A stretch of DNA of 64,000 bases from Candidatus Thorarchaeota archaeon (GTDB lineage Archaea; Asgardarchaeota; Thorarchaeia; Thorarchaeales; Thorarchaeaceae), in the NCBI GenBank assembly GCA_048882045.1, contig JBHLRZ010000010.1:13939-77938 (forward strand), in the 5' to 3' direction. This document shows, in pieces, positions 170 to 64,000 of this stretch (position 1 is the first letter of the stretch; each line of letters starts with the position of its first letter). The position numbers were made by a program, and so were the translations under genes. The notes under the pieces were generated by a model. The model was not told the DNA's origin. It saw only the letters and a program-made list of their open reading frames with translations, and did not search any database.

Positions 170-256
170 CATCTTTCTCAGGGGAGTTATCACTGGGGGT
201 GTTTATATTCAAGTTCAGCTAAGGAGTTGGAGAGTCAGGTTCGAGTCAGGTGGAGG
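170..256 (+). repeat. Element A copy 1: 87-bp promoter/leader repeat (TTTATATT box plus GGTGGAGG RBS)
   Basis: 78/87 identical by manual alignment to the reverse complement of 52151-52237; similarity ends exactly at the RBS. Confidence 0.9.
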
Positions 257-1559: not shown

Positions 1560-1604
1560 CTGGGGGTTTTTATATTCGAGATATGCTAAGGAGTTGGAAG
1601 GTCA
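1560..1604 (+). repeat. Element A partial copy (TATA-containing core)
   Basis: 38/45 identical to 193-237 and 40/45 to the 52-kb copy. Confidence 0.8.
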
Positions 1605-1628
1605 TCGAGTTCCAGGTCACATCAAATG

Positions 1629-1777
1629 GCCAGCTTCATAGTGACCCTGCGCTCTGTCCGTGAGCTGGATACTTTCTGGAGTCACGACTGATGAAAAGGC
1701 TTCTCAAGAAGGAGGAGAACACCTCAAGGCAACTGGATGCGATGAGAGAGGTTCAGGGGAAGTTTGTGTTTACCTAA
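1629..1777 (+). pseudogene. Frameshifted copy of small gene B (homolog of 54306-54485)
   Basis: Translates as ASFIVTLRSVRELD / FLESRLMKRLLKKEENTSRQLDAMREVQGKFVFT*, with a 1-nt deletion at about 1670; 5' end degraded. Confidence 0.85.
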
Positions 1778-47039: not shown

Positions 47040-47290
47040 TGTAGACCAAAAATGTTCAGTGTGCCTCTACATATAGTCGTTCTGATTTGGTCGAGGGGAC
47101 TATTTTGAAAATCCATAGCATACACCCCACGTGCCAGACCACCATTCATACATCACAGCAGAAGAAACTCATAAAGAGCTGAGCAATAAATGTTATCTGA
47201 AATTTCGCTTCTGTTGTCAAGAAGACGTGGAGCTTCTGGAGGACTTACACAAGAACCGTACAGAAGGTAGTAAATTGTTGGTGGTTGTAT

Positions 47291-47899
47291 ATGAGTGACT
47301 CCTTGAGCCTCTTGCACCTTGTTGAGTCATATCTCATGACTAAGGACTACAAAGCAGCAATCAAGCTGTGTAGAGAGATTCTCATCAAGGAACCAAACAA
47401 TGTCGGAGCAATCCACAATCTTAAGTTTGCGTTGCATGATCTGGGGGAGGCTAAGGCGTGGATAGAGTGTGCATTCTGCAGACGAACTCTCGAAACTGAC
47501 ATCTATCCCACCAACATACCTAGGGACCAGATACAGAAGGCTGTTTTCGCCATCAAGTACGCAGAGATTCCAGAAACTGTAAGGGTCGTATACTGTCCTG
47601 ATTGTGACAGGAACACACCGGTGACGTTCATCCTGTGTATCAAGTGCCGCGAGGGGTACTTGAAACACTACTATACCTTTCTTGGGGTAAACAAGGAAAC
47701 CAAGCAGGAAACCTTCATGGAACGGATCTTCCGATGTGAGAAATGCAACTACCGATCTACATTGGCCGAAGAAAAATCACCCGCTGAGCTGAGGGTCTAT
47801 GAGGGTCTCTTGCAGGTGAGACCAGAGATCAGAGAAATGATAGAGGTATTATTCCAGCAAGAGGAAATGCATGGTAAGATGAGAAGCAAATCAGAGTGA
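47291..47899 (+). CDS. TPR-like plus multi-Zn-ribbon hypothetical protein
   Basis: N-terminal TPR-like helices; four CxxC motifs (CAFC, CPDC, CIKC, CEKC). Confidence 0.7.
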   Translation: MSDSLSLLHLVESYLMTKDYKAAIKLCREILIKEPNNVGAIHNLKFALHDLGEAKAWIECAFCRRTLETDIYPTNIPRDQIQKAVFAIKYAEIPETVRVVYCPDCDRNTPVTFILCIKCREGYLKHYYTFLGVNKETKQETFMERIFRCEKCNYRSTLAEEKSPAELRVYEGLLQVRPEIREMIEVLFQQEEMHGKMRSKSE

Positions 47900-48171
47900 A
47901 CGGAGAATCGGAGGCCACGACTCGGTTTCAAGCCTGTTACAGAGGTCCTTCCTCTCTAACCACTGTTCGAGTTTCCGGTCCATACTCTTCTCTATATCAG
48001 CTCCATAGCCCCTCACCTCATCGTAGAGTGGCTCCCTCAGCTGACACAGGACCAGAACCTGAACTCCTCACCCTCCTCTCTCACATCGAAGGAGTGCCTG
48101 TTGGTCACATTGTCGAAGGTGATGACTGCGACCAAACCCTCTGATATGGTCTTCATGAATATCCGTCGCAT
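47891..48171 (-). pseudogene. Probable frameshifted small gene E downstream of element C copy 1
   Basis: ATG follows GGAG; MRRIFMKTISEGLVAVITFD... continues in another frame as VLCQLREPLYDEVRG...PPILRSL*. Confidence 0.4.
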
Positions 48172-48200
48172 GCACACTCCGTGGTAGACCACTATTCTTT

Positions 48201-48240
48201 CACCGGAACTATGTGCAGATGGAGCCTGAAAAAGACCTAC
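48201..48240 (-). repeat. Element C copy 1 (most diverged)
   Basis: + strand caccggaactatgtgcagatggagcctgaaaaagaccta aligns without gaps to the other three copies. Confidence 0.65.
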
Positions 48241-48274
48241 TGAGATTAATCAAATGATTCTGTCAATGGTTAAC

Positions 48275-50356
48275 TCAAGCGAATATCCATACAGCTTCGA
48301 ACATCGTCACATCATTAAGTGAATAACTGTTTTCAACAGTGCCTTGAACGACTACACTCGATCCAACGGATGGAGGTTCAACTCCATCCCAGAAAAATGA
48401 TAGGAAGCCTAGATATTCCACGTGCTCATCTATAATAGTAAAGTAGTTGTCGTCAACAATCGCGAGTATTCCCTTTACAGTGACTACTGTTCCAACTCCA
48501 GCTTTATCATCATTTATGTCCTTAATATCAGTCACACCGAAGACGCCGTCATGCCAAGCTACTGAAGATAACAATAGAATAAACACAACAATGATTACCA
48601 AAATAATACGACGTTTAGTGCTCATCAGAAATTTTGGCGTCCTAAAGCCGCTTCCCGCGGTTTCAGGACGATTGTAGAAAAGAGTATAGATAATAAATAG
48701 GAAGACGAAGACTCTCATTGCAGTATCAAGTAGAAGCCAAAATGCCACCCGTATAGGATAGAATTGCGGATCAGCTCTTGGATAAGTAAGGAAGGGAGAT
48801 ATACGTGTGAATTCAATCCCGTTGTATTGAACTGGTAATCCAATGCTAGCAATGATATAGTCAATATTGGGAAAGATGACCCACATTGTGAAAGATATTA
48901 GGACTCCTGTTGTTAGAGCGAATGATAATGGACCTCCCCTCTTCCTGTCTCTATATCGGTGTCCAAAGAAACCCATCGTGATAATCGTTAGCAAGGAAAT
49001 CATTAGAATCGTTACAGCGTATTGACCCTCATGAAGTGCTACTAGATTGGAAAATCCCCAAGGAGAGTAATAGGTGACAGTAACACCATTACCTGTGTCT
49101 AGTGGTGGAACATATGGTGCGTAAAACACATAAAACAGAGTTGAAAAGAACATGACGACAGTGTATAAACCTAACACTACTACACTGGTTTTTAATACAG
49201 CCCGCCAATGAATGAGTTCTGAGAACTTCCATCCATAGACATGTTTGAGAAATATTATACCTACGAAGTATGGAATTGACAATAGTAAAATCAGCCCGGG
49301 AATCATCATTGGAATGACATACCATAGCGAATTCAGCAATGGAATGACATTGAACAGTGTATATGCGCCTAAAATTGGAATGATTATATTTGGGAAATAT
49401 TTCCAATTGGAAACCTTCAGACGTAATTTCATGAATAAAGACACTAATCTCACACAAAAGATGGTAGCATATTTTTCAACGAGTGGCAACACCAAGACTG
49501 CAAAAATGATTGGGATGAATGCTAAGACAAATCCAGAAAGATAGGTTGTTGCGAATAACTCAAGCCCAGGAGTTCCAGCAATGGACAAGACTTGGAAGAT
49601 ATTCTGCAAGATTGCGACTATAGAGAGGAGGATATTAATCTTGAAGAACGCTCCAAAATGGGTGCTTGGATCCTGTTCAAACTCGACCTCACGAATGAAG
49701 AAACCTGCTGTTTTAGCAATCCTTCCGGTTGCTGGATATCCAAATCTGTAGATCCATGTAAAGAAGATGAGAATATTCAGAATATAATAGTCCATTATTG
49801 GTAAAATGTATATTTCCAGTGAAGGAATGATTGTGGCCAGCCCTATAATGAAGTACTCTTTCCTTGCTTCACCAATGTCTGTCTTCGGAATACAAGCAAA
49901 CCGTTGAGTTTTACCAGCAACCAACTTTGCATAGTCCGATTTTTTCTCCCATTCAATTAGACGCTGCATGGTTTCCTTTCTGCGCCAAGTAAATGTCCTC
50001 AAAACTAGCAATAGAAAGCAGAATAATGCAGAATAGAATGACACCATAATCCAAATCATATAATCTTGTAGCGCTCCTCCAACATGATATACGAAATTAT
50101 ATAGAAATATCATCCCCATAGTGCCTAATCCCACAGATGGATCAAATTGGGGATCTATCAAGGGCTGAAGATGAAATCGAAGAAAGAATGCGAATATTCG
50201 GACATACATGATAAGAATGAATGCCTCTATGTAGTTATTTCGTCGTATACGGTTACTTTTTACTAAAAGGAGATAGAGAGATGTTGTAATCACAGGTGGA
50301 ATGAACTCTATGAGAATTGTAGTGAGATTTGGAATAACAAGCTCTAAACCCTGCAA
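48275..50356 (-). CDS. Polytopic membrane protein with C-terminal OB-fold-like domain
   Basis: Many TMs; C-terminal T.IKDI...G..VTVKG...G..V.V.GTV; AT-rich. Confidence 0.7.
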   Translation of the reverse strand: MQGLELVIPNLTTILIEFIPPVITTSLYLLLVKSNRIRRNNYIEAFILIMYVRIFAFFLRFHLQPLIDPQFDPSVGLGTMGMIFLYNFVYHVGGALQDYMIWIMVSFYSALFCFLLLVLRTFTWRRKETMQRLIEWEKKSDYAKLVAGKTQRFACIPKTDIGEARKEYFIIGLATIIPSLEIYILPIMDYYILNILIFFTWIYRFGYPATGRIAKTAGFFIREVEFEQDPSTHFGAFFKINILLSIVAILQNIFQVLSIAGTPGLELFATTYLSGFVLAFIPIIFAVLVLPLVEKYATIFCVRLVSLFMKLRLKVSNWKYFPNIIIPILGAYTLFNVIPLLNSLWYVIPMMIPGLILLLSIPYFVGIIFLKHVYGWKFSELIHWRAVLKTSVVVLGLYTVVMFFSTLFYVFYAPYVPPLDTGNGVTVTYYSPWGFSNLVALHEGQYAVTILMISLLTIITMGFFGHRYRDRKRGGPLSFALTTGVLISFTMWVIFPNIDYIIASIGLPVQYNGIEFTRISPFLTYPRADPQFYPIRVAFWLLLDTAMRVFVFLFIIYTLFYNRPETAGSGFRTPKFLMSTKRRIILVIIVVFILLLSSVAWHDGVFGVTDIKDINDDKAGVGTVVTVKGILAIVDDNYFTIIDEHVEYLGFLSFFWDGVEPPSVGSSVVVQGTVENSYSLNDVTMFEAVWIFA

Positions 50357-50437
50357 TTACTACATTCCCTAATCATTTTATGAAAGAGGGAGATTCTGCT
50401 GCTTGTATAAGTGCCTTTTTGTCAATCTTGACATTGT

Positions 50438-50572
50438 TCATTTCTTCACTACATAGGCCACATGACAGGAGGGACATATCAGGACCATCTGGCGTTCTTG
50501 GAGCTCGTGGTTCGAGGCCTCGCACACTGTCTTTCATCTGGTCCCGTTCTTGAGAACGATTGTTTCACACAA
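50438..50572 (-). pseudogene. Microprotein D copy with in-frame TGA at Trp13
   Basis: MCETIVLKNGTR*KTVCEASNHELQERQMVLICPSCHVAYVVKK; collinear with 58968-59102. Confidence 0.85.
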
Positions 50573-50578
50573 GTTGTA

Positions 50579-50618
50579 CACCGAGAGTATGTACTGATGA
50601 GGATTGAAAAGCACCTAT
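50579..50618 (-). repeat. Element C copy 2; contains the TAG stop of the TPR gene
   Basis: + strand caccgagagtatgtactgatgaggattgaaaagcacctat. Confidence 0.9.
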
Positions 50619-52144
50619 GCATCAACAGAGGTTTCTAGTTCCTGCAACCGGTCCTGTATCCTCTTCCTCAGCGTCTTCACACCCGGCGAGTCTGTGAAGG
50701 TGAGGGCATCCCGCAGGGTGAGTTGGGCGGCCTCTGTTTCACCAATCATCTCTTGATATTTTGCCTTGAGAAGGGCATGCTGCATCATGATTCCGGGATA
50801 GTTCTTCTCTCGTGCATGAATCCCAAGTTGTGTCATCCACTGTCCTGAGGACTCGACTAATCTAGAACGCTCTAGTCTTTCGAGGTTCTGTACTTCAGCC
50901 TTTGCTAGAGCTAGAAGAATACTGTTGACCTGAAATTCTAAGGGTATGCGTTTGACCTCACTTAGGGCATCAGACATGTTTTGAAGTCCTGCATCAAGAT
51001 TACCAATAGCTATTTCGAATAAGCCTGACACAAAATTATAGCTCGCCAAGGTATAGTCTTCTCCTCGTCCTAAGACTATTTTATATATCTCACTCAAAAG
51101 TTGAGGAACTCCATCTAGCTGACCTAACTGAATCACAGTTCTTGCTATGGCTAAGGAAAGATGAGGGTCTGGAACTGGATCTGGATCTAACTTAGATATA
51201 GGAAGTTGTTTGATGATTGTAGGAGTGAGCTCATCCCAATCCATTATCTTCTTAGTCCATTCAAATGCCTCGTTTGGGAGATCAATATCGCAATATATTC
51301 GCGAAATTTCAATTGCATCTGTTCTCTTGTCAATCCAACTAGGTTCTGTAATTCGTTCAGCCTCAAGATAGAATTCCACAGCTAAATCATATTCTCCAAC
51401 AATGGAATGTAAAAGACCCATGTTACGAGCTTCAACACTCGCCCAATGGTTAGCTCCCCAAGACTTGGATGTTTGATAAGCCTCCTCCAAAAGGGAGAGT
51501 GCTTTGAATGCATCAGTTTCCATTAGACATCTAGCAAAATCAACTTGGGCATCACATTTCCCAATGACATCATCGTAGTGTGATGAGATTTTTATAGCCT
51601 TTTCAAAGAGTTTCATGGCTCCTGCAATGTCGGCACTTCCTCTCGCATACCACCCACTCCTAATGTAAATCTCTGTAGAGAAGCATTCTAAGTCAGGTTG
51701 ATTCTCAACTAGTTTTGTAGCCTCATCTATGAAAGTTGGCCGCTTAATTCTTGGAAGGTAAAAATGAGCTCCTATAATTAGGAGAAATAAACGAACCCAG
51801 TCTTCAGCTATGTGCTCAAGTGCTTTGTCGATTGCCAATGAAACACCTTGTTCGTATTCATCTGGGGGACCATCATAAAGATAGAATGACCAAGGTTTGA
51901 GTATAACATCATCCAAAAGATGAGGACGCAACTTATTGAATATCACGGGATTTATCGAGTTGTACGCAAGTATTGTTGTGAGATATGACAAATCGTTTGC
52001 TTCTTCTTGATCCAATATGAGATTAACAAGCTTCTCTACAAAATCATCAAATCCTTCCGCATCTTTCAGAGTGGATTCGACAATCTCACGTGTTTTCTGT
52101 GAGAGAAACGGATAGAAGTTCATAACAGTTCCAATAGGTTCCAC
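50615..52144 (-). CDS. Large TPR-like helical-repeat protein
   Basis: G......GEYD.A...Y..A TPR-like units; GTG at 52144 follows the GGTGGAGG of element A (MEPIGTVMNFYPFL). Confidence 0.8.
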   Translation of the reverse strand: MEPIGTVMNFYPFLSQKTREIVESTLKDAEGFDDFVEKLVNLILDQEEANDLSYLTTILAYNSINPVIFNKLRPHLLDDVILKPWSFYLYDGPPDEYEQGVSLAIDKALEHIAEDWVRLFLLIIGAHFYLPRIKRPTFIDEATKLVENQPDLECFSTEIYIRSGWYARGSADIAGAMKLFEKAIKISSHYDDVIGKCDAQVDFARCLMETDAFKALSLLEEAYQTSKSWGANHWASVEARNMGLLHSIVGEYDLAVEFYLEAERITEPSWIDKRTDAIEISRIYCDIDLPNEAFEWTKKIMDWDELTPTIIKQLPISKLDPDPVPDPHLSLAIARTVIQLGQLDGVPQLLSEIYKIVLGRGEDYTLASYNFVSGLFEIAIGNLDAGLQNMSDALSEVKRIPLEFQVNSILLALAKAEVQNLERLERSRLVESSGQWMTQLGIHAREKNYPGIMMQHALLKAKYQEMIGETEAAQLTLRDALTFTDSPGVKTLRKRIQDRLQELETSVDA

Positions 52145-52150
52145 GCTTGA

Positions 52151-52237
52151 CCTCCACCTGACTCGAACCTGACCCTCCAAATCCTTAGTATAACTCGAAT
52201 ATAAACACCCCCAGTGACATCTCCCCTGAGAGAGATG
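52151..52237 (-). repeat. Element A copy 2
   Basis: Reverse complement is 78/87 identical to 170-256. Confidence 0.9.
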
Positions 52238-52416
52238 CCTGAAAGTGAACTTTGTTCAATTTTTCCACCTCGATTCGTACAAATTCCTCACGAAAATCAC
52301 TAGTCCTGATTCTCCCAACATACCTTGAGCATTCCCCGGAGATCCAGCGCCACGGAAACGACAGCGACTAGTTACAAATCCAAGAGAATCTACACTTGTC
52401 ATTCGACTTTCTTGAC

Positions 52417-52443
52417 AAAGGGAATAGGGGGAACTAGTCCCCC
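52417..52443 (-). terminator. Hairpin terminator candidate
   Basis: GGGGGA-CTAGT-TCCCCC then TATTCCCTTT, after the stop at 52454. Confidence 0.6.
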
Positions 52444-52453
52444 GTTTGAAATG

Positions 52454-54193
52454 TTAATTGTTGATTATTCTCAATGAAAGAACATAGGCGAGTGCACCAC
52501 ATTGATTGACTCTTTTTCCCAGAACTTCCAATGCAATCCTCATCTCTTCGTATCCAGCACCTAGGCCACTCCACAAGTCATTCAACAAGGGATTCTGGAA
52601 TGGAAGATTTCCAGGCACCTCCCCCTCATGTTCATCGTAATATGTTTCCAGCTCCGTATATGCATATTCAAAAACATTATAGATTGAATATTGTGATCGC
52701 AGACCGTCTTCAAAGAAAAGGGTAAAAAGGCCTTGTCCGAAATCAACTACTGATTCGTGATAAGAATCAGCTGCGGTTATTACTAGTCTATCCTCTGCAC
52801 TGACATCATCAATATAGCTACCTGAGTAACAATTTTCAAAATATATGATCATCTTACCGGGTTTATTATCGCCATCATATGAGTTCAATGCTTGTGCAAC
52901 GACACTGATGCTAACATCGGTACCCCCTGAGGACACTCTTCCTCCTACTTTCACTACGTTTTGTTCACCATGTCCTACAATGTAGATGAAGAGTAAACTT
53001 CCACTGTCGGTTACTTGATTGAAATGAGAGATGTGATTTACTAAGGCAGTTGTACGATCCCCCTGCCAATCATCATGTGTTTCGACAGGAACTGGATTAT
53101 GACAGTCATCAAAGAACCAATGAAGACCATCTCCATCCTCTATAAAGTTGAAGATATTGTCTCTTGATGCTTTGTGTCCATTATATTCGGAGTCAGCTGT
53201 AAGAAAAGTCAAGTCAATGATGATCGCATACTTAGAAGTACATGTCCAGTCATCTGTTGTAAAGGTGTCCTCATTTGTTTGACTTCTCTCTTCACCCTGT
53301 ACAGTATGCCCAACTGTAATACTCCATGCATACTCTGTATCCATGACAAGACCTGTAAGTACTTGACTACCTTCATCTTCTCCATCCATGTCAATAATCT
53401 CAGTCATCTCCCAGTCAGCATCATTAACTCCCTTCCAACTGACAGATGCATAACAATCGGTTCCCTGTCCCAAATTTCCCCAATCATTCACCGTCCAATC
53501 CAGCTGTGCCTGTTTCTCATCTATTGAGCTGATACTGGCAGAGATATCCGGATTATAACTATGAGTAGGTATTAGCTCGCCCATATTGACACTATTACTA
53601 GTCACACTCACTGTACTGGCTCCAGGATTGGCAAATCCACCAACAGTTGCAATCGCCTTACATTGTGTCATGCTATCACCAGTCGTATATTCGAAAGAAA
53701 AGTCTCCATAGGCATCTGGTGTTGTTTGACCTATCTCCGACCAGCCTTCATACACATCTCTGTATATAGTCACAGTTGCATCCGGATTTGTTTCTCCGTA
53801 TATTGTATACATTCGAGTCATGTATACATTGCCAAAATTCACATTGTCGTACTGATCCGGAATCCCATACTTGATCTTGTCAGTCCATGGATATTTTACT
53901 ACTAGCACCTTGAAATTTTCAGTTGACGACCGCCCTGTAACTGACTTGCTGAAGTAACCATTTGCATCAGTATAGTCTGTAGCTTTCCAGACATTGTCGA
54001 CATAGATCTTGACCATTGCTGAAGCAATTGGGTCAGATGTTCCTTGTCTTTTCACATAGCCATAGACATCATACGTCGTTGTTCCACCACCTCCGGGTGG
54101 TGGAGGAAAAACAGCACTAGCTAATACAGCTGATTGTAACATCAACAGACATACTGTTACTGCTAGAAAATACGTTACTTTCTTAGAATGAAT
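52454..54193 (-). CDS. Secreted clan CD (C13 legumain-like/caspase-fold) cysteine peptidase with carboxypeptidase-regulatory-like and Fn3-like domains
   Basis: LLFIYIVGHG and IIYFENCYSGS His/Cys dyad; RLVITAA; complete signal peptide only if translation starts at ATT 54193 (otherwise 54145). Confidence 0.75.
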   Translation of the reverse strand: MHSKKVTYFLAVTVCLLMLQSAVLASAVFPPPPGGGGTTTYDVYGYVKRQGTSDPIASAMVKIYVDNVWKATDYTDANGYFSKSVTGRSSTENFKVLVVKYPWTDKIKYGIPDQYDNVNFGNVYMTRMYTIYGETNPDATVTIYRDVYEGWSEIGQTTPDAYGDFSFEYTTGDSMTQCKAIATVGGFANPGASTVSVTSNSVNMGELIPTHSYNPDISASISSIDEKQAQLDWTVNDWGNLGQGTDCYASVSWKGVNDADWEMTEIIDMDGEDEGSQVLTGLVMDTEYAWSITVGHTVQGEERSQTNEDTFTTDDWTCTSKYAIIIDLTFLTADSEYNGHKASRDNIFNFIEDGDGLHWFFDDCHNPVPVETHDDWQGDRTTALVNHISHFNQVTDSGSLLFIYIVGHGEQNVVKVGGRVSSGGTDVSISVVAQALNSYDGDNKPGKMIIYFENCYSGSYIDDVSAEDRLVITAADSYHESVVDFGQGLFTLFFEDGLRSQYSIYNVFEYAYTELETYYDEHEGEVPGNLPFQNPLLNDLWSGLGAGYEEMRIALEVLGKRVNQCGALAYVLSLRIINN

Positions 54194-54305
54194 TGAATTC
54201 CTCTCCTCACGCTATTAGTCTGTGGACGAATTTCACAGACTACAACTTGAAGTCAACTGCATCCTAGATTTAAGACCTATCATTCATATAAATGAAGAAT
54301 AATTG

Positions 54306-54485
54306 TTAGTCTAACACAAACTTTCCCTGAATCTCGCTCATCACATCCAGTTGCCTAGAGGTGTTCTCCCTCTTGAGAAGCCTCCTCCGTAGCCGTGACT
54401 CCAGAAAGTCATCCAGCTCACGGACTGAACGCAGGGTCACAATGAGGCTGGACTCCTCACTGATCTCATAGAGCTTGATCTGCAT
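54306..54485 (-). CDS. Small gene B, 59-aa hypothetical protein
   Basis: Homologous pseudogene at 1629-1777 keeps the same reading frame; no clear RBS, so it may be a gene remnant. Confidence 0.6.
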   Translation of the reverse strand: MQIKLYEISEESSLIVTLRSVRELDDFLESRLRRRLLKRENTSRQLDVMSEIQGKFVLD

Positions 54486-54581
54486 CAGAGTATGATTGTT
54501 TTGAAAATGAAATCGGAAGCTATAAGTCATAGGTTTGATTAATTTATTGCTTCTCACGGAATATTACAAGAAGGGACTGTT

Positions 54582-56642
54582 TTGACAATCAAGCAAATCA
54601 ATAGACTTGCAGAGGAACTCCTGAAGATAAGAGAGACTCCAGAAATGTCTCCGACAGAGTCATTTGAGAAACAGCAAACAGAGCTGAAAAGTCTTATTGA
54701 GCAAGGTGAAAAGCTAGCTCAGGATATAGGAGATATTGAAATAGAAAAGCTAGCTTTGGATATCGGAACTCTAGAAATCGGTCTAGAAAACATCGAGATA
54801 ATATCTCTACTCACAACGGCGAGTTTTCTTTTCAGAGGGGAAAATCTGAATGAGAGAGGACTCAAATTATTCAATCTAATATCTGAATGGTCAAAGAAGA
54901 AAGAGAAGCATCTGATAGACGATGCGTGGGAAATTTTGAAGTCAGAAACTTCTGAACGATCAAGTGAATTTCTAATACCGCATCTCTACTTTCTTATGCG
55001 ATACTATCATTGGTTCTCAGACTGTATTAGACATTTCAAAAAATGGTTTAGAAAGTATACTGATACTTTGGATCGCTTTTCCTACTCAGCGTTAATGGGA
55101 AGAACAAGGTGGGAGAGATTGGAAAGACCAAATCGGACACCAAAAGACGTAATCTCTCTTCAAGTTGAAATCCTAAAAGAAGTCCGCGAGAACCCTCCAG
55201 TGATTGATTGGCCATTTTGGGGATTGCCCTCGAGTCCACCTAGAGAACCTTGGATTCGTTCAGAACTCAAAGAGGGGGAAGATGTTACACTAAACTCCAA
55301 GAACCTTATTCATGATTTTAGACCTGATATCAAGATCACAGGCTATGATACATACAGAGACTTAGTGAGTAGAAATCGTTTCATAAGTCGAATTAGAGAA
55401 GCCACTTATTTACGCCATGCAATGTTCTACAGGGCTATAGTTTCAACCAATCAGAAAAAAATGTGTCTTCAATACCTTTGGATTTTCGATAGACAAATGG
55501 GGAGCACGAGCTCATTATACATGGTAATTGTGCCATTCCTTGCTCTTATTTGGACAATGATAGTATCCACAACCTTTGCTTCCGAGATATCATTGATACA
55601 TTCATGGTTGGGCGCAGGACTAATAGTCAATATCCTATCTAATCCGGAATTATGGGTTGCAATCATCACAACACTTGTTCTTGGTTTAACTCTCTTCATC
55701 TCAGGAATCACACCGCATATTAGTGATGTCAGAAAGATAAAGGAGGGTTCCAAATTTCGTTTTAGAAATACTACATATTTGATTCCAGTAGGTCTATGTA
55801 TAGTCTCGATCTTTTGGTTAAGTTCAGGGATTCAAGAAGCAGCAATCATAATCTTTCTAGTGGGTTTTGTTCCTTGGTTCCTGGAAACATTGGGTAAACT
55901 TCCTACTCAGCATGAAATGGACTATGCACCAATCTTCGTCTGGATTAAACGAAAAGAAGGAGTTCAGGTGTGGAATGATGATTCAAATGATTGGATATTC
56001 GTGAAAGCATACTGGGATAAATTCCACTATTACACTGATAAGTATGAATCGGAAGGTTGGATGGATAGAAAGGACAATTTGAAAAACAGTCAACAAATCC
56101 CGCTAACAATGGATAGTTCATGGCACAGTTTTTCTCTACAGTCAGAAGAACGAGATTTTCCAAAATCATCAAAATGGTTTGCATTGTGCGGAATAATATT
56201 CAGTTTTGTGCTTTGGTTCACAGGATTCTACCGAATTGGAGCTATTCTGTTGAGTCTATCTGCCATACTCGGACACCTATTTCTTTCTCGATATACGATA
56301 CAATGGGATTTAGTATCTTCAATTGATTACGAATTGGATAGGTTAAGAAAACATATACTCGATAAGAAAGATTACGAAAAAGTAAAGGGCAGTATTCAAC
56401 CCAGCTGGAAACTTAGCCTTGAAGATGAGATTATCCATAAACACCATCTCACATTTGATAAACTCAAGGTGTTATGGAACCGAGAGAGTGAGGAAGCCCG
56501 GTTAAAGATAGTATCGAAACTTCAGGACCCATTCAATGTTCGTCCTGAATTCTACTACACATTCAGAGATGATGTAGAGTACATGATACATGATCTGATT
56601 TCCAGAGTCCAAGAACTTGAAGAAAGAATGAAACAGAAGTGA
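54582..56642 (+). CDS. Hypothetical membrane protein
   Basis: 686-aa AT-rich ORF; TM clusters interrupt a soluble domain (LQYLWIF..Q, HEMDYAPIFVW, WDKFHY, WHSF). Confidence 0.7.
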   Translation: MTIKQINRLAEELLKIRETPEMSPTESFEKQQTELKSLIEQGEKLAQDIGDIEIEKLALDIGTLEIGLENIEIISLLTTASFLFRGENLNERGLKLFNLISEWSKKKEKHLIDDAWEILKSETSERSSEFLIPHLYFLMRYYHWFSDCIRHFKKWFRKYTDTLDRFSYSALMGRTRWERLERPNRTPKDVISLQVEILKEVRENPPVIDWPFWGLPSSPPREPWIRSELKEGEDVTLNSKNLIHDFRPDIKITGYDTYRDLVSRNRFISRIREATYLRHAMFYRAIVSTNQKKMCLQYLWIFDRQMGSTSSLYMVIVPFLALIWTMIVSTTFASEISLIHSWLGAGLIVNILSNPELWVAIITTLVLGLTLFISGITPHISDVRKIKEGSKFRFRNTTYLIPVGLCIVSIFWLSSGIQEAAIIIFLVGFVPWFLETLGKLPTQHEMDYAPIFVWIKRKEGVQVWNDDSNDWIFVKAYWDKFHYYTDKYESEGWMDRKDNLKNSQQIPLTMDSSWHSFSLQSEERDFPKSSKWFALCGIIFSFVLWFTGFYRIGAILLSLSAILGHLFLSRYTIQWDLVSSIDYELDRLRKHILDKKDYEKVKGSIQPSWKLSLEDEIIHKHHLTFDKLKVLWNRESEEARLKIVSKLQDPFNVRPEFYYTFRDDVEYMIHDLISRVQELEERMKQK

Positions 56643-56771
56643 CAGCAGAATAATGATGATGGAATTTCGCTTTTTATGTCCTTTTTAGGCGTTGACTGAG
56701 TCTTTTGAACTCCCACTATCCAGACTCCACTTCATTATAGATATGATAGAATTCCCCGGAAGTCAATTGTG

Positions 56772-57734
56772 TCATTGAATTGAAAATGCTGGTATCAACC
56801 TTCCAATTCTATCATAGCCCCTGGTCTTGTTTCTGAAATATCTAATCATGACATCCTTGTCATTCGATGGACTTTGTTGTGATATGTATTGATAGATGGT
56901 TTCCCAAGTGGTTCGTATGAATTTCCATCTCTGGTTTTCCTTGATATGTCTTCTAAAACTAGCTTCAATGTCTGTTTCCCGTTCAGACAACACCAGATTG
57001 ATGAGATAGAAGTCTAGATCGTATCGTTCTGCTATCCAAGTCCCAAGTACCCAGAAGCGTGTCAACTCAAAATATGCCTTATCTACAGCTACTGTAGTGA
57101 AGTCCGAGTCAAAGACTTCCGAGAACCAATTGTTAGCACGAGTCGCGTATTTCATAGAGTCGGGAATGTTTCTAGGTGGTTTTTTGTTTGGAGCCGTGAA
57201 CTTTGCCTCGATGAAGAACAGTGCATTCTCTGTCCTGACTATGATATCGGGCTCTGAGCCCCCTCTTTTCCGCTCTCCAAACTCATCTCCAGCTCTCTCT
57301 AGAAGGGACCAACCAGAATCTTCTCTCTGACTATAAGACCAGTAAATCACTTCAGCGGATTGTAGCGATGTGTCGGCAATTGAGCCCAGGAATCCCTCTA
57401 TCAGATTACTCCGTTCCAAGAATCTGAATACATTCCAAGTAAGAGCATCCTCGCTCCGTTCCCGTCCCAACCGATGTTTTTCTCGTTTGTACTCTTCAAT
57501 TCTATTGAACAGCTTTCGTCCTGACGAGTCCATCCAGAGAAAGTTATCTAACCAGGCCAAGTGATCAAAAGTTGAGGGAGAAATGTAGATGTTGTGCTTT
57601 CGACATAGGAATTCATCCTTTCTCTTGAACCGCCCTCGCTGTCTATCCACTCTTATATTGCAATCTTTGACTGGACATTCGACTTTACTATCTGTGATTT
57701 TTATTCTTTCCTTCAATTTTTGAACGCCGTACAA
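56772..57734 (-). CDS. PD-(D/E)XK-type nuclease (restriction-endonuclease-like)
   Basis: SEDALTWNVF...SEPD.......FIEAKF; N-terminal CPVKDC..C..H. Confidence 0.7.
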   Translation of the reverse strand: MYGVQKLKERIKITDSKVECPVKDCNIRVDRQRGRFKRKDEFLCRKHNIYISPSTFDHLAWLDNFLWMDSSGRKLFNRIEEYKREKHRLGRERSEDALTWNVFRFLERSNLIEGFLGSIADTSLQSAEVIYWSYSQREDSGWSLLERAGDEFGERKRGGSEPDIIVRTENALFFIEAKFTAPNKKPPRNIPDSMKYATRANNWFSEVFDSDFTTVAVDKAYFELTRFWVLGTWIAERYDLDFYLINLVLSERETDIEASFRRHIKENQRWKFIRTTWETIYQYISQQSPSNDKDVMIRYFRNKTRGYDRIGRLIPAFSIQ

Positions 57735-57753
57735 TTGCTGCTCCCCTCATGAC

Positions 57754-58047
57754 TTACTTTTTCTTCAGGTCCAAGAACTTCCCATCTCGAACTCTAGCCA
57801 GATACTGTCGTCCCCTCATGACCCACATGATCTGGTGTCCCTCCTGAGCCTCTTTTCCCCACTGCGAAGACTTGAACGGGTTCTGTTCGATGAACGTCAG
57901 ACCACCGTACTTGACAAGTCGGACCTTGCTCTTCGAGGTCTTCTCGATGGGGTACACCTCTCCATTGATCTCTACAGTGGATTCATCCTGAAAGATAGAG
58001 CCATAGATGAGATGAGCAACATTCTCGATGTCTTCTTCCTCATTCAA
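57754..58047 (-). CDS. Hypothetical protein (97 aa)
   Basis: Coding-like composition; F.EQNP.K.S.W motif; lies just upstream of the nuclease gene. Confidence 0.65.
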   Translation of the reverse strand: MNEEEDIENVAHLIYGSIFQDESTVEINGEVYPIEKTSKSKVRLVKYGGLTFIEQNPFKSSQWGKEAQEGHQIMWVMRGRQYLARVRDGKFLDLKKK

Positions 58048-58276
58048 GATTTGTCAACCAAAGGTACTATCCAAATCTTATGTCTTGAATGTTTTCACAG
58101 AATAGAAGAACTAGGACTATATGCGCTTTTCAACGCCGACTGATACTGACTCGACACTTCAGATAATCATCAAATACCCAACGAAATATTGAAACTTCTG
58201 ACGATAATTGAGAGAAGGTCCTTCTAAAATCCATTCATAAAGAAGTTCCTTTTCATTATTCTTTGGAGGGATTGGA

Positions 58277-58975
58277 TTGATCTTACCGCCAACTTATTTC
58301 CCTTGGCAGCTCATTTGGATAGGTGTCTTCATTCTCATCTACTATCATTCTTGGAAGACAGCCTCATGGAATGAAAGACGTAACATAGCTCTGGCAGTCT
58401 TGCTAATTTCCACAGCTCTTCTCATTCCATTTCATTTCTGGGGAACTTACAACCTAAATGGCATAGAAAATGACGGTCTGTTTGTGTATGGGTTTGGTTA
58501 TTGGGAGGACTCTGCTTTGCTACAACCAGAAACGACATACAAGTCTGATACATTGTCGAATCTGTACACTATAGGTTGGGTTTCTCTGACACTCTTGACA
58601 GATGAAGAGGTAGTATTCTATCTTTTAGACGAAAACTTTCCCGAAACAAGATACGAAGAATACAATTCTTCAGAAATGAGTGAGTTCTTTGGATTCAGCT
58701 TGCCCTATCATTATTCTGCGTTTAATGTCATAGCTAATTGGACCATGAATGTGTTTAATCCAAGTTTGAACGTGACTGCTGAATTCACTCTTTACATTGA
58801 AGGTTGGGAAGATGCTGGATTATCAGAACGCTGGTCAAGGCAGTACATTCAGTATGAAGAACCAACCAGAGGATTATATTCTCTCTGGGTATGTGCTCTC
58901 ATTGTCAATCCTATTGCTTACTACTTCTATAAGAAAGAAATGAATGATTCAAGCCAGAATGGAATTCTCATTTAG
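58277..58975 (+). CDS. Three-TM membrane protein with extracellular beta domain
   Basis: TTG follows GGAGGGG; two N-terminal TMs and one C-terminal TM. Confidence 0.65.
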   Translation: MILPPTYFPWQLIWIGVFILIYYHSWKTASWNERRNIALAVLLISTALLIPFHFWGTYNLNGIENDGLFVYGFGYWEDSALLQPETTYKSDTLSNLYTIGWVSLTLLTDEEVVFYLLDENFPETRYEEYNSSEMSEFFGFSLPYHYSAFNVIANWTMNVFNPSLNVTAEFTLYIEGWEDAGLSERWSRQYIQYEEPTRGLYSLWVCALIVNPIAYYFYKKEMNDSSQNGILI

Positions 58976-59102
58976 TGACAACATATGCCACATGACAGGA
59001 GGGGCAGATCAGAACCATCTGTCGTTCTTGGAGCTCGTGGTTCGAGGCCTCGCACACTGTCTTCCACCTTGTCCCGTTCTTCAGTAGGATTGTGTTACAC
59101 AA
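58968..59102 (-). CDS. Microprotein D: 44-aa Cys/His putative Zn-binding protein
   Basis: GGTG-N6-TTG start; MCNTILLKNGTRWKTVCEASNHELQERQMVLICPSCHVAYVVTK; 10 synonymous vs 3 nonsynonymous codon differences (plus the stop) relative to the 50.5-kb copy. Confidence 0.8.
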   Translation of the reverse strand: MCNTILLKNGTRWKTVCEASNHELQERQMVLICPSCHVAYVVTK

Positions 59103-59148
59103 GTTCTACACCGAAGGTATGTACTGATTGGGATTGAAAAGGACCTAT
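59099..59148 (-). repeat. Element C copy 3
   Basis: 45/50 identical to 62781-62830. Confidence 0.9.
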
Positions 59149-59308
59149 CAATTACTATGCAGATTGCAGAGCGACCAAAAATTCTCTCACATGTTTTTGA
59201 TATGGGTGTTCTCCTTTGAAAAACAACTCCTTGGCTCAACCCATAAAAACATCAAAAAACTAGCTCCCCAATATAATCTTAATAACTTGAATCATCATTA
59301 AACGTCCC

Positions 59309-60001
59309 ATGGAATTCGCGTGGTGTAAGAAACAGAGAACTATCTTTTCAAGTATAGTTTTTATGATTCTCATCTTGACTTTGGTCAGCTCTCGAAGCCA
59401 AGGAGTGACATTTGAATCCAACGAACCACACCAGTCAAACGCTCTATGGATAGAACCTGCAACTATGACATTACAAAGTCAGATTGGAAAATTCAATCTG
59501 ACCGTCTGGTTGAATATTTCAGAAGAGTGTTTTGCATGGCAGGTGAAGATTCTCTTCAATTCCATTCACTTCAATGTTTCAAGAGTGGGGTATACAGATG
59601 GAGAAAAGAGCGAATTCTTCTCAGGTCACCAAACAATCACAATTACGCCCATCATTAATGATACTCTGGGCTATGTCCTAGCTGGAGAAACTTTGCTTGA
59701 AAACGATACAAGAACCCCGGGCTATGGGAGTCTGTTATGGATTGAGTTCAATATGAATAGTGAATCCACTACTGGACAATTTGATATTGCCTTCTCCGAA
59801 CCATACGACGTGGATACATTTGTTCTTGATCCCTATCTCGGCACAGTAAGTATGGAGGAAGTAGATGGAGCTGTAATTTCCATTATACAACCTGGAGACA
59901 CCCTTGTTCGTGATCTAATCGTAGTGGCCATTATTGGTGGTGCACTGATTCTTGCTATAGTAGGAATTAGCAGAAGAAGGAGGGCTAAGATAGATGAATG
60001 A
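59309..60001 (+). CDS. Membrane-anchored cohesin-domain protein
   Basis: Signal peptide; LWIEP...FNLTVWLN....FAWQVKILFN......V...G.G.L..IEF cohesin pattern; C-terminal TM plus RRRR. Confidence 0.7.
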   Translation: MEFAWCKKQRTIFSSIVFMILILTLVSSRSQGVTFESNEPHQSNALWIEPATMTLQSQIGKFNLTVWLNISEECFAWQVKILFNSIHFNVSRVGYTDGEKSEFFSGHQTITITPIINDTLGYVLAGETLLENDTRTPGYGSLLWIEFNMNSESTTGQFDIAFSEPYDVDTFVLDPYLGTVSMEEVDGAVISIIQPGDTLVRDLIVVAIIGGALILAIVGISRRRRAKIDE

Positions 60002-62756
60002 GAATAAAGCGAAGTCGACCTTTTTGATTCTATTAATTTTCATATCATGCATCGCTGGCGGATGGTTTACCATCAAATCTGTAAATCCACGCCCTTCAGC
60101 CAATTCATCAGTAGCATCATCAGAAATAGGAAAAGATGTGCTGATTATTAACGACCCCCGGAAATACGCATTCTTTGGATGGTATAGACCGACAATATTC
60201 GCTATTGAGATATTGAATCTCTTGAATAGGACGATTTTGTGGGCTTCGAGTTATACGAATCCAAATGAGACTAAGATCGTATTCTTCCACGACCCAGGAG
60301 ACTCCGATGCATTATTTGTGCGAGACTGGTTAGTTGATGGAGGATATCTGTTGGAGAATATTAACAATCAGACTTCAGCCAATATTGAGGAGTTTGAACC
60401 AGACTATTACTCGGAGGTTGACCTTGTAATTTATTGGAGTACAATTGGTTTCTACTCAATGAATGTTGTCAACTCGGAAGTTCCATTCATTACAGTGTCC
60501 GTTGTGCAAGCAGAAGAGATGGGTATTGCAAATGGTATTGTTACAGGAAGTGGGAGTAAAGATACATTTCATGTGGTGAATAATGGGTACTTCCCAACTG
60601 AGAGCTATCCATTAACTAAGTTGATACTTGATGATAGCTATTCGTTCCAAGCTACTAAAGCCACTTCCATTGGTAAGGTTCTCGTCACATCTGAAGCGGG
60701 GAGCGTTGCAGCTAATGTGGAAATTTCAACAAATCAGAATGTGACAGTCCAAGGAGATGGCAGTGCTCTGATGTCATTTGGCATTACTATTCCAGAGTCC
60801 CCCTTGTCTGACATGCTTCGTAGTGCATTCTTCGAGAATCCCCTTACTCTCGAGCAAAATATTGAATATGATGTGCCTGAAACCATAACTGTTCAAGATG
60901 AATCTGAGAGTGAGGAAACTGTCAAAGATGTCTCACTTCTTGGAGATGTGAGCGATCATGATGGGCAGGTTGGAGTAGGAGACCTAGACCTCATTGCGGG
61001 TCATATTGGAGTCAGTGTTGGGGAAGATGATTGGATACCAGATCTTGATTTGAATTGGGATGGGAAGGTCGATCTAAGAGACCTTGCTATTGCAGCACAT
61101 AACTATGGTAAGACTGAGAATAACACAGGAATACTCTTCATATCAGGATACTATGATGGGGAACTAGTCAACCTCACTGAAGTGTACTTTAGAGGACCCG
61201 AAGGATCAACGAAAGTAAATGTTTCAGCTTCAGGACACATATGGTATCATCTACTTCCTGGGACCTACACCATTTTTGGCACATTCAATGGTACTGAAGA
61301 GAGCACTGTTGCTTCTATCAGCCCTGGAGAGGTGACATACGCACAGTTGGATTTTGGAGGGGTGCCTGCACCTACCGAACAGCAAAACTCCGCACCAGTA
61401 AGGCAATCACTATATGAGGGCTTTTCAATGGAGCAGTTGGTTCTGCTTGGTTTTGATGTCAACATCTATGATTCAAAGACAACACCATGGAGTTTGAGTA
61501 ATGAAACTATAGTGACAATGCAAGCGAACTCAGACCAACTTGCTGAATTCCTTGGTGGTACTGATTGGCAGATTAGAGTAGGGCCTATTGACGAAAATAC
61601 TACAAATTCTGCTGCTGAGTTCATATTTACCAAGATACAGTATATGATGCTCATGCTTCAGTCACTTCCCGGCGACCAAAACTATACATCTTACTGGCAG
61701 ATTGCATTCGACTTACCTGGAGGCAGCGTACTGCAAAATCCAACTGAGCTTGAAGATTTGACATGGACAGTCGACTTTGGAGAAGGTACAATCATGCAGG
61801 CAAACGTGACTGTAATTGCTGGGAGGGTCATCATTGATGAATTGCTCTCTGTCACTGAAGGAAATATCACAGCCTCAGAAACATACCTTGCAACAGCACT
61901 CGGAAACTATCGAATGTTCTCGATCAATTACACCTATGTTGCCCCACTATTACTGACAGAACGAGAAAGAGTAGAAATCGAACGTGATTGGTCGAAGACT
62001 TGGACCTACAGAATAGCCCCAGGGAGCTTTGAAAAAAGGATCAGTTCTGGTCCGTTCTCAGTAACTCTCAGAGCCACTCCTACACTACACGTAAATTGGT
62101 TCATGGGGTGGGAAAGAAAATGGACCTGGTCAGGCTATAAGTTGCAGTGGTTTGAATCATGGATGAAAATAACTCCAGCAATCAAGGTCGAAGCTTCTGC
62201 TGGGGTTTCTGTCGATTATACATATAGGAGAGAATTTGTACTTTGGACATTCTCGACAAGGTTCACTTTCTGGGCAGGCTCAGTTCTGGTTTGGGCAAAA
62301 TTGAAACTCACTGTTAGTGTGGGCGTAGAACTCAATGCTAATGGGCAATTCTCAATTTCAACTTGGGCCCAGGCAAGTTCATGGTACAAAGCAGGAGTTA
62401 GATGGCAGAATGGTTGGAGTCCCATATGGCAAAGTGGTAAAGATGCTTCATATGGAAGACCTTCAATCACGGCATCAGCAGGGGTAACACTAACCCCCTA
62501 TGCAAAGTGTAGACTAGCATTCCTACTATATGATGTAGGTGGACCTTTTGTGGAAGCTGTTGCGTATGCACCAATCAGTCTAACGTTATCAGCTGGACAA
62601 TCGGGTGTATCAGGGACGTGGGCAATCAGTCTCAAATTGAAAATCAATGTTGGAGTTACTCTTGCGGGATGGATAAAGAAGATCCTTAATATGAATGAGT
62701 ATTCGAGAACAGTTGCAGACTTTTATCTCATGACTTGGAATGGTACATGGTTATAA
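59994..62756 (+). CDS. Large secreted protein with a type-I dockerin and a beta-rich C-terminal domain
   Basis: GDV..HDGQVGVGDL..IA..IG and DLNWDGKVDLRDLAIAA.NYG duplicated EF-hand-like segments; overlaps the cohesin gene stop. Confidence 0.8.
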   Translation: MNENKAKSTFLILLIFISCIAGGWFTIKSVNPRPSANSSVASSEIGKDVLIINDPRKYAFFGWYRPTIFAIEILNLLNRTILWASSYTNPNETKIVFFHDPGDSDALFVRDWLVDGGYLLENINNQTSANIEEFEPDYYSEVDLVIYWSTIGFYSMNVVNSEVPFITVSVVQAEEMGIANGIVTGSGSKDTFHVVNNGYFPTESYPLTKLILDDSYSFQATKATSIGKVLVTSEAGSVAANVEISTNQNVTVQGDGSALMSFGITIPESPLSDMLRSAFFENPLTLEQNIEYDVPETITVQDESESEETVKDVSLLGDVSDHDGQVGVGDLDLIAGHIGVSVGEDDWIPDLDLNWDGKVDLRDLAIAAHNYGKTENNTGILFISGYYDGELVNLTEVYFRGPEGSTKVNVSASGHIWYHLLPGTYTIFGTFNGTEESTVASISPGEVTYAQLDFGGVPAPTEQQNSAPVRQSLYEGFSMEQLVLLGFDVNIYDSKTTPWSLSNETIVTMQANSDQLAEFLGGTDWQIRVGPIDENTTNSAAEFIFTKIQYMMLMLQSLPGDQNYTSYWQIAFDLPGGSVLQNPTELEDLTWTVDFGEGTIMQANVTVIAGRVIIDELLSVTEGNITASETYLATALGNYRMFSINYTYVAPLLLTERERVEIERDWSKTWTYRIAPGSFEKRISSGPFSVTLRATPTLHVNWFMGWERKWTWSGYKLQWFESWMKITPAIKVEASAGVSVDYTYRREFVLWTFSTRFTFWAGSVLVWAKLKLTVSVGVELNANGQFSISTWAQASSWYKAGVRWQNGWSPIWQSGKDASYGRPSITASAGVTLTPYAKCRLAFLLYDVGGPFVEAVAYAPISLTLSAGQSGVSGTWAISLKLKINVGVTLAGWIKKILNMNEYSRTVADFYLMTWNGTWL

Positions 62757-62780
62757 TATCTGAAAGAATGCGGGTTTCGT

Positions 62781-62830
62781 ACAAGTTCTACACCGAGAGT
62801 ATGTACAGATTGGGACTGAAAAGGACCTAG
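62781..62830 (-). repeat. Element C copy 4, with the truncated start of gene D
   Basis: 45/50 identical to copy 3; followed on the minus strand by TTG TAC GAA ACC CGC ATT CTT (MYETRIL vs MCETIVL). Confidence 0.9.
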
Positions 62831-62847
62831 AAGATTCAAGGCATCCT

Positions 62848-63270
62848 TCAGTTTTTGCTAGTTCCCATTTCTTCCTGGACAAAATCAACAGCCTGTTTCA
62901 TCTTGGATGCTAAATCAGACACATCCTTGACCACTAGAGTGTTAACAATTTCTTCTACAAAGAGGTCCTCAGGTGTTACTCCTTTCTTGGGAGGTCTCTC
63001 ATCCATGTCTGGAAAGTACTTCTTACGGATATTCTCGTCAAGTGTGTCCTTGTAGGAACTTGGAGTCGTGTCACGCCTTAGTCGAGTCGCCCTCTTCTCT
63101 CTTTCAATTGTCCTCTGAATGTCTTTCTTAAGCATCATCCTGATGTATTCTTCATCATTCATCTCATTTACAGACTTTCCACTAGTTTCAGTCACAGGAC
63201 TGAGGAAGTCATCAAGTAGTTGTAACACTGAAAAATCGTCAATGGTCTTCGGTCTCTTTCCATTCCGCAT
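62848..63270 (-). CDS. Hypothetical protein (140 aa)
   Basis: ATG start; charged, helical composition; ends 17 nt before element C copy 4. Confidence 0.6.
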   Translation of the reverse strand: MRNGKRPKTIDDFSVLQLLDDFLSPVTETSGKSVNEMNDEEYIRMMLKKDIQRTIEREKRATRLRRDTTPSSYKDTLDENIRKKYFPDMDERPPKKGVTPEDLFVEEIVNTLVVKDVSDLASKMKQAVDFVQEEMGTSKN

Positions 63271-63520
63271 AGTCTAGTCCGATCCGTCATGAACTACTGA
63301 GAGCCTCAGAATAAAATACCTTTGTAATAGGAAACAGAAACTCCTACGCGTCAACCTGCTACTAGATGCTTCGTACTAATTAGATCTCAATCATTTATAC
63401 CAGTCATCTAATGATTCTTCATCAAACAGTTCGGCCCCTTCCTCATCATCTTGAGATCCCTTGTCTTCTTCGACATTAATGTCCTCCAAAGGGGCCTATG
63501 CAATCGAAGTAGTTCCAGTA

Positions 63521-64000
63521 TCAATACACTGTAACAGTAAGAAAACTATATCTGATGTAACTATTCGTTCCCTCATCATCGATTGTAATCCAAATCGATA
63601 CAGTGGACTCTCCAGTCGTACTAGATACATAGGCGTATCTCATGTAACCGTTAGTGGCGATATTATGATCATCATACACGCGAATCCGTGTTGGTGGTAA
63701 AACTGTGTTGTTGATATCAAAGAGAATTCCAATTTCAGTATACCCAACTGGATCCAGATATACTTCACAGTTGAACTCAAGCAGTACTCTATCGCCAGGT
63801 TGCACAGAATATGTGAGGCTCAGTTCCGGAGGATATTCAACCAAACTAATGCCATCTAGGAAGTATATGTCATCATATTGTTTGACATATATCGTGGGTC
63901 CTTCTGGAGATGGAGCAAGAATCAACTGATACAAACCTATGCCCAATGCTCCAAGTGAGATAATTAGAGCCAAAGCACCTAGTGTTTGACCAGAGATTTG
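63521..64000 (-). CDS. Membrane-anchored beta-sandwich hypothetical protein, 5' end outside the window
   Basis: Reading frame open to the window edge (QISGQTLGALALII...); N-terminal TM. Confidence 0.65.
   Translation of the reverse strand, partial: QISGQTLGALALIISLGALGIGLYQLILAPSPEGPTIYVKQYDDIYFLDGISLVEYPPELSLTYSVQPGDRVLLEFNCEVYLDPVGYTEIGILFDINNTVLPPTRIRVYDDHNIATNGYMRYAYVSSTTGESTVSIWITIDDEGTNSYIRYSFLTVTVY

Follow-up and report, generated by a model that had tools for sequence, protein, structure and literature searches.

The main subject of this analysis is element C, a short repeat present in four co-oriented copies within a 64,000-nucleotide (nt) stretch of a Thorarchaeota archaeon (contig C10, positions 13939 to 77938), hereafter the window. 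With moderate confidence, C is taken to be the cis-acting 5' control region of a small genus-specific operon, D-(E)-B, whose first gene, D, encodes a predicted microprotein, and which has been duplicated and has decayed in a hypervariable locus. A preliminary description of the same window had proposed that C marks attachment-site-like (att-like) points at which cargo genes are inserted or swapped as in an integron. This proposal was not supported, since C always heads the D operon, the corresponding empty sites of related genomes are without C, and no inverted repeats are present. The data were drawn from the window, from the assembly to which it belongs (3.63 Mb in 93 contigs, 93% complete, fraction of G plus C [GC] 0.442) and from a comparison set of 28 genomes of one Thorarchaeota (Asgard) genus, designated below by G and a number, which was searched with a sequence-only model of element C (R1).

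Copies of element C and the operon behind them

The minus-strand 5' ends of the four copies are at positions 48239, 50617, 59147 and 62829. Each copy starts with TAGGT, and 5' of this motif the similarity among the four ends abruptly. These assignments are supported by the following data. A direct-repeat search of the window returned a 65-nt family at 50553-50617, 59083-59147 and 62765-62829 together with a 181-nt pair (50438-50618 and 58968-59148) of 87% identity, and a 23-nt core of C, searched with up to 3 mismatches, was matched three times in the window against 0 times expected from 100 shuffles. The more diverged copy 1 was recovered by alignment and by model R1 (Table 1). The earlier claim of four co-oriented copies with a common sharp edge was borne out.

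A fifth copy of the genome was located on another contig (C2:101201), and pattern and model searches of the genus gave about 30 copies in 16 of the 28 genomes, with a maximum of 6 per genome; no tandem copies were found by the model among the 28. Nearly all matches begin at position 1 of the model, which means that the 5' edge is common across species. Element C is confined to one Thorarchaeota genus and is of low copy number. Outside the genus, a single borderline pattern match (3 mismatches) was obtained in another genus of the same family, and a search of all GTDB species gave two short matches in bacterial metagenome-assembled genomes that are probably due to chance.

In every case C precedes D, E or B of one operon, or a fusion that retains the first 5-11 codons of D. 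The start of D lies 45 nt after the T of TAGGT and is usually TTG, with ATG in its place in the C2 copy; C ends in GGTG, which is placed 6 nt ahead of this start. The open reading frame (ORF) of D spans 44-56 amino acids (aa) with an N-terminal Cys and a CPxCH knuckle. Between species the ratio of nonsynonymous to synonymous divergence (dN/dS) is 0.03-0.19 with the Cys and His residues kept, and for the intact D3 compared with its G016 counterpart it is 0.13. From this codon evidence, gene D is judged to be a real protein-coding microprotein gene under purifying selection, with a predicted start codon served by GGTG as the Shine-Dalgarno sequence. Only weak zinc-ribbon similarities were returned for D by Pfam (best E = 0.013-0.014, below the cut-offs), and its relatives amounted to 7 clusters among 5.8 billion sequences, both clusters with a source name being from Thorarchaeota. 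In related genomes the next genes are E (ORFs of 137-139 aa, although the true start may be just after the stop codon of D) and/or B (about 105 aa). On the function of B and E, no usable information was obtained from Pfam, NCBIfam, PADLOC or the ESM Atlas.

The arrangements headed by C in the genus include C-D-E, C-D-B and C joined straight to B (G019 and G018), and in G012:C20 C plus about 11 codons of D are fused to a helix-turn-helix repeat protein. Loss of D between two GGTG motifs, one in C and one inside D, was observed twice, for window copy 1 and for G022:C23. Comparison with G012:C141 places the second breakpoint of copy 1 at a GGTG near the 3' end of D, so that C adjoins a frameshifted E, the remnant being 72% identical to the contiguous E of G012:C141 (137-aa ORF). 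These forms are a natural deletion series that always retains C, and C is never free-standing: it is either the head of a D-(E)-B operon or part of a recognisable deletion derivative of one. The window copies are likewise heads of one operon family in differing states of decay, and the region holds several decaying small genes, namely the frameshifted E and B' copies and a D2 with a nonsense codon. It had been stated that three copies of C are followed by D and one by a different small gene. D was indeed found at three of them, but only D3 is intact, D2 being interrupted and D4 truncated, and the gene beside copy 1 is a broken E brought there by the loss of D.

Constraint, exchange and rival readings of the edge

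The mean pairwise identity was 0.89 for nt 1-15 of C, 0.74 for nt 1-45 and 0.63 for D, and the TPR proteins encoded right next to C share only about 51% identity across species. Since C is more constrained than the codons of D while the abutting TPR sequence is poorly conserved, C was deduced to be a functional element with its 5' limit at TAGGT. Copies 2 and 3 differ by a dS of 0.58 and a dN of 0.048, this dS being as large as that between copy 3 and its G016 ortholog, and the similarity of these two copies runs exactly from TAG to the stop codon of D. At a dS of 0.58 the unconstrained flanks are no longer alignable and no crossover point is needed to explain where the similarity stops. Taken with the span from TAG to the D stop codon, this leads to the conclusion that the sharp edge is the edge of selective constraint.

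The history proposed from these data would be as follows. C would be a 45-nt control stretch ending in the ribosome-binding GGTG, with its first 15 nt the most constrained. The head of the operon would have been duplicated to several loci of the genome and the copies would then have decayed by a nonsense codon (D2), by deletion between GGTG microhomologies (copy 1), or by truncation or fusion (copy 4), while purifying selection kept C. With synonymous sites near saturation, only constrained sequence would still be alignable, and the copies would thus seem to stop at one base; that base would represent the limit of the functional element rather than the crossover point of a recombinase. Homology-dependent exchange, through gene conversion or crossover within C-D, would also have substituted one C-D unit for another at different loci, and the locus between pycB and p150, in which the copies lie, would gain and lose genes for surface and secreted proteins independently of C.

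The exchange step was deduced from a maximum-likelihood tree of C together with D (C+D). Sixteen copies were included, leaving out G012_C20 (the helix-turn-helix fusion), G024_C290 (truncated) and G007_C114 (5' end diverged). Two types were resolved (split support 96/96). Window copies 2 (linked to the TPR gene) and 3 (linked to mem232) are sisters (95/87) within type I. In G011 and G069 the TPR-linked copies are of type II, as is the mem232-linked copy in G009. Orthologous TPR loci were found with a full C and D, with C and a deleted D, with a 19-nt stub of C (G009:C50) and with no C (G018:C176). The discordance between the C+D phylogeny and the orthology of the flanks, together with the varied state of the TPR loci, indicates that C-D units and whole A-TPR-C-D blocks have been replaced and relocated (A is the promoter-like element ahead of the TPR gene). 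The discordance points to gene conversion or homologous exchange, and exchange within the common C-D sequence would be the simplest mechanism.

The regulatory role of C itself is predicted from sequence. A role as promoter or operator DNA and one as RNA leader or intercistronic element are about equally probable. Its first 15 nt resemble a box upstream of one tRNA-Gly gene of the genome. No TATA-like box was found at a fixed distance upstream of C, and at the TPR loci the coding region extends as far as the element. Several observations weigh against a control region. With a weight matrix from 10 tRNA promoters, the 5' block of C ranked only at about the 99th percentile; element A, which is evidently a TATA promoter, scored no better than C on this 10-site matrix. 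The upstream box of C is not purine-rich, unlike the other boxes resembling a B recognition element (BRE) that were seen, and the TATA-like run of C, if used, would put the start site on GGTG. No consensus RNA structure was obtained for 14 copies on either strand by RNAalifold and single-sequence folds, and no Rfam match on C at E values up to 5. The variability at third codon positions is slightly raised in C (20:15:28), leaving room for partial coding. Finally, exactly the same TPR stop codon is adjoined by one type of C+D in some species and by the other type in others, which repeated site-specific insertion could explain as well as conversion does. A structured RNA was rejected as a candidate for C on the folding and Rfam results.

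Of the other accounts, one makes C the end of a discrete unit of about 180 bp, from TAG to the D stop codon, that is copied by a mechanism involving D or a host factor. The exact extent of the similarity between copies 2 and 3, the discordance of the phylogeny with the flanks, and the presence or absence of C+D at otherwise syntenic loci are all in keeping with such a unit. Selection at a dS of 0.58 already accounts for both edges, however, and the unit is longer in relatives (C-D-E-B) with ragged 3' ends, has neither terminal repeats nor target duplications, and shares its filled sites with other extra genes, the insertion boundaries differing from the ends of C+D. This account was therefore considered unlikely. 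We give the same low probability to its broader form, in which C+D(-E-B) would be a new small mobile module of Asgard archaea, independent of recombinases or moved by an unrecognised enzyme and possibly involving D, with TAGGT as a defined end. If true, it would explain the two C+D types at one TPR stop codon and why variable DNA so often starts at the TAGGT edge.

It was considered a little less likely still that C is partly coding, as an N-terminal extension of D read from a GTG directly after TAG, the edge then being an ORF start. Five copies do read TAG-GTG, four of these five are open in frame into D, and several substitutions in C are at third positions and synonymous in that frame. Against this, in most copies that codon is GTC, GAC or ATC, with no alternative start, and four copies, including the one ahead of the intact D3, have an in-frame TAG at codon 14. 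The codon-position bias is also weak (the ratio given above for C compared with 33:31:70 in D), many of the replacements would be radical, and conservation of the first 15 nt far exceeds that of the codons of D itself. Antisense ORFs across C-D were rejected separately because variation falls on their first codon position, as expected of a mirror of the D frame.

The att-like site, at which a recombinase encoded elsewhere would swap or insert cargo at the TAGGT edge, was judged improbable and ranks just below the coding account. In its favor are the sharp common edge and direct orientation of the copies, the differing gene content around them among species, and the shared TPR stop codon already described. 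Several observations weigh against it. In relatives, C was not found, at up to 5 mismatches, at the junctions of pycB with the putative cohesin-dockerin (coh-doc) pair or with p150. At a second locus, G009, G005 and G022 have C-D(-B) beside the conserved fam28 gene where this genome has a 153-bp spacer without C, and the fam69/fam28 junction is without C both in this genome and in the relatives with the empty arrangement. The single core at an empty site and two cores at a filled site that define att sites were thus not seen. The conserved coh-doc block stops 24 and 108 nt short of the repeats on its two sides, and C is conserved on one side of the edge only. No inverted repeats or hairpin involving C and no terminal inverted repeats were found, no common motif or target duplication was seen in the flanks of C, and C is tied to the D operon with no more than 6 copies per genome.

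No recombinase was found in the window, in agreement with the preliminary description. In the assembly seven families were sought and none was found: the tyrosine recombinase PF00589, the serine recombinase PF00239, PF01609 (DDE_Tnp_1), PF13358 (DDE_3), PF00665 (rve), PF01797 (Y1 transposase) and PF00078 (reverse transcriptase). Controls were positive for each of the seven, PF00589 being found in 14 of 14 control genomes; a novel enzyme, or one encoded in the missing part of this incomplete assembly, may be present. With no PF00589 anywhere, no Xer-like enzyme was detected either, which may reflect gaps in this 93%-complete assembly or divergence. Three TnpB-like ORFs are present on other contigs and have no similarity to the island. 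A search of the literature on Asgard mobile elements gave nothing resembling C.

Two outcomes had been named as arguing for ordinary duplication, and the first was observed in part. C does occur beside one operon family only, but of its boundaries only the 3' edge is ragged. The gene content between copies is not constant: cargo varies from species to species of the genus, in stretches that are not bounded by C. Three further candidates were tried and rejected. Against an att site derived from a tRNA, the window holds no tRNAs, and no 3' fragment of tRNA-Val is present in the window or its contig. For a virus or provirus end, no match to C was obtained in viral contigs. A further TAGGTC behind gene B was considered as the right-hand att site, but 8-mers of that class occur about 9 times per 64 kb, and the match was assigned to chance. 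A remnant of a solitary CRISPR-like repeat, of a guide-RNA scaffold end or of a transposon end is most improbable of all: the likeness is superficial (the plus-strand end resembles the 3' end of some CRISPR repeats, with a sharp edge followed by variable DNA), there are no arrays in the genome by k-mer scan and, as noted, no tandem copies in the genus, no similarity to the three TnpB loci and no Rfam match, and the would-be RNA strand is antisense to a gene under purifying selection.

The variable island and its other modules

The copies of C lie in an island of variable, extra DNA in this genome, between the pycB-like gene and p150, and this locus is truly hypervariable. The distance from pycB to p150 is about 700 bp in G022 and about 2.6 kb in G014, and further arrangements are given in Table 1. 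The GC content is 0.40-0.42 in the island compared with 0.45-0.47 for positions 20-48 kb of the window, so the island is AT-richer. GC content and synteny with relatives thus uphold the earlier description of a variable, AT-richer cargo region. The genes between the copies of C are on both strands. As for the identities given to the cargo, the TPR and peptidase C13 labels were supported, but the dockerin label had only a weak Pfam match (E = 0.37) and those of cohesin and nuclease had no family support. Apart from TPR, peptidase C13 and NosD-like domains, the four resources named above for B and E were uninformative on the cargo as well.

Table 1. Positions of features in the window (1 is the first nucleotide of the window)
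Feature	Position	Strand	Remarks
Element C, copy 1	48192..48239	-	Most diverged copy; R1 E = 1e-9
Element C, copy 2	50570..50617	-	Opening TAG doubles as stop codon of the TPR gene; R1 E = 2.7e-15
Element C, copy 3	59100..59147	-	In divergent intergenic region, 162 nt from start of coh230; R1 E = 1.2e-14
Element C, copy 4	62782..62829	-	18 nt past stop of p140 and 24 nt beyond stop of doc920 (other strand); R1 E = 7.3e-15
Gene D, copy 2	50438..50572	-	Type I; in-frame TGA at codon 13 (50534-50536) where others have TGG; probably a pseudogene
Gene D, copy 3	58968..59102	-	Intact; predicted 44-aa CPxCH microprotein, TTG start 6 nt after GGTG
D copy 4, truncated	62728..62784	-	About 7 D-like codons, then unrelated sequence, giving an 18-aa ORF
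E remnant	47891..48192	-	Two frames (48037-48192, 47891-48016); 1-nt deletion in a Cys codon near 48040; pseudogene
Gene B	54306..54530	-	Small protein; last gene of the C-D-(E)-B unit in relatives
B' copy	1630..1770	+	5'-truncated and frameshifted
TPR protein gene	50615..52180	-	
Element A	52151..52244	-	Predicted TATA-type promoter with G-rich upstream box and long 5' leader; ahead of TPR gene
Element A copy	162..256	+	Ahead of gene for NosD-like beta-helix protein (250-1551)
Element A copy	1560..1617	+	Repeat family D7; ahead of B' remnant
pycB-like carboxyltransferase gene	45459..47039	-	Conserved left anchor of the variable locus
Region between pycB and coh-doc pair	47100..59255	.	About 12.2 kb; 80-220 bp in G068, G011 and G069; in G009 and G004, 3.4-4.2 kb with different genes
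coh230 + doc920 block	59256..62757	+	Conserved in five relatives (nucleotide identity 75-81%); C3 and C4 are 108 and 24 nt away from it
p150 gene	63521..63973	-	Right anchor

The preliminary description had also held that small modules are reused ahead of differing genes, and this was confirmed for element A, element C and genes B, D and E. Three copies of A were found in the genome, all in the window. Each has a G-rich box followed by a TTTATATT box, and a leader of some 50 nt is likewise common to them. The two boxes are also conserved in the G022 ortholog. On these features A is predicted to be a canonical TATA-box promoter, and it looks like a promoter-plus-leader module reused ahead of unrelated genes. 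The recurrence of A and B some 50 kb away around other cargo was likewise verified: positions 54313-54451 of B recur at 1630-1770, and the distal copies of both A and B are in the opposite orientation to the island. In G011, G022 and G069 the A-TPR-C-D unit is preserved directly upstream of the promoter of a candidate sec61-beta gene, as read by eye. In this genome the candidate sec61-beta locus (contig C11, near 1595-1800) has a different upstream gene, and the A-TPR-C-D unit is in the C10 island instead.

Several side observations were made on the content of the island and its relatives. In G004, the closest relative, the variable spacer contains a second copy of 104 nt from the 5' end of pycB (G004:C23 12132-12245), which points to local duplication and rearrangement. 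The p140 (62848-63270) and p97 (57754-58047) genes of the window have many dispersed copies in the genus at 70-89% nucleotide identity; for p140 there are up to 3 copies per genome, with an identity higher than that of the neighbouring housekeeping gene pycB. A homolog of the 232-aa membrane protein gene of the window (58277-58975) was found in G011 (C100:3500-6647, at approximately 1940-3069) between a complete tRNA-Val and a copy of about 36 nt of the tRNA 3' end. The two are in the same orientation, the classic footprint of an integrated element, and only about 25 nt of the 3' end of D remain there. At the other end of the window, a gene for a secreted or surface protein of 1744 aa (5814-11048) contains internal repeats of about 950 nt (families D1 and D3; 6888-8879), and domains related to this protein recur in the variable spacers of relatives.

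Relation to known systems

The best reading of C and D is that both belong to known kinds, C to conserved cis-regulatory elements and D to paralogous families of small genes. Duplicated cis-regulatory regions ahead of non-homologous genes have been described for bacteria as promoter propagation or as putative mobile promoters. The likeness is that a conserved non-coding block stands upstream of different genes, A with its TATA box heading three unrelated genes and C heading D, E, B and fusions. In contrast to mobile promoters, the present case is archaeal, C has no canonical TATA box and a function that is predicted, and its copies are tied to one operon family and not widely spread. Gene-converted families of small paralogous genes are resembled in that C+D sisters within one genome lie at loci whose orthologs carry the other type, and in that exchange would be limited to the homologous stretch. 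Unlike recent gene conversion, the exchange would be old (at the dS of copies 2 and 3), and a crossover that swaps the downstream context would be indistinguishable from conversion.

With the attC/attI arrays of integrons, C shares direct repeats at gene junctions, a variable gene set and a sharp common boundary. It differs from them in that no IntI was found beside the array, no attC-type imperfect palindromes or hairpin sites occur 3' of each gene, and the genes are not co-oriented, site-bounded cassettes; furthermore, C lies 5' of one specific gene family, at low copy number, with empty sites lacking the repeat. Nor does C resemble an insertion sequence or a miniature inverted-repeat transposable element, as terminal inverted repeats, target-site duplication and a transposase of the tested families were all absent. 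Single-domain zinc-finger microproteins of the C(P)XCG type have been studied in the archaeon Haloferax. Gene D matches these in the predicted size of its product, the CPxCH knuckle, the N-terminal Cys and purifying selection, and differs in having no family-level match and in being confined to Thorarchaeota.

A conserved regulatory leader, together with old duplication and gene conversion, thus accounts better for what appeared to be an archaeal integron without attC. In each of the species compared, the interval between pycB and p150 is different, and it is useful for studying how Asgard archaea gain genes for surface proteins. C is one of the few sharply bounded and strongly constrained non-coding elements described for an Asgard lineage, and, being tied to the operon of an orphan zinc-finger microprotein, it may offer a handle on gene regulation in a group in which experimental genetics is almost absent.

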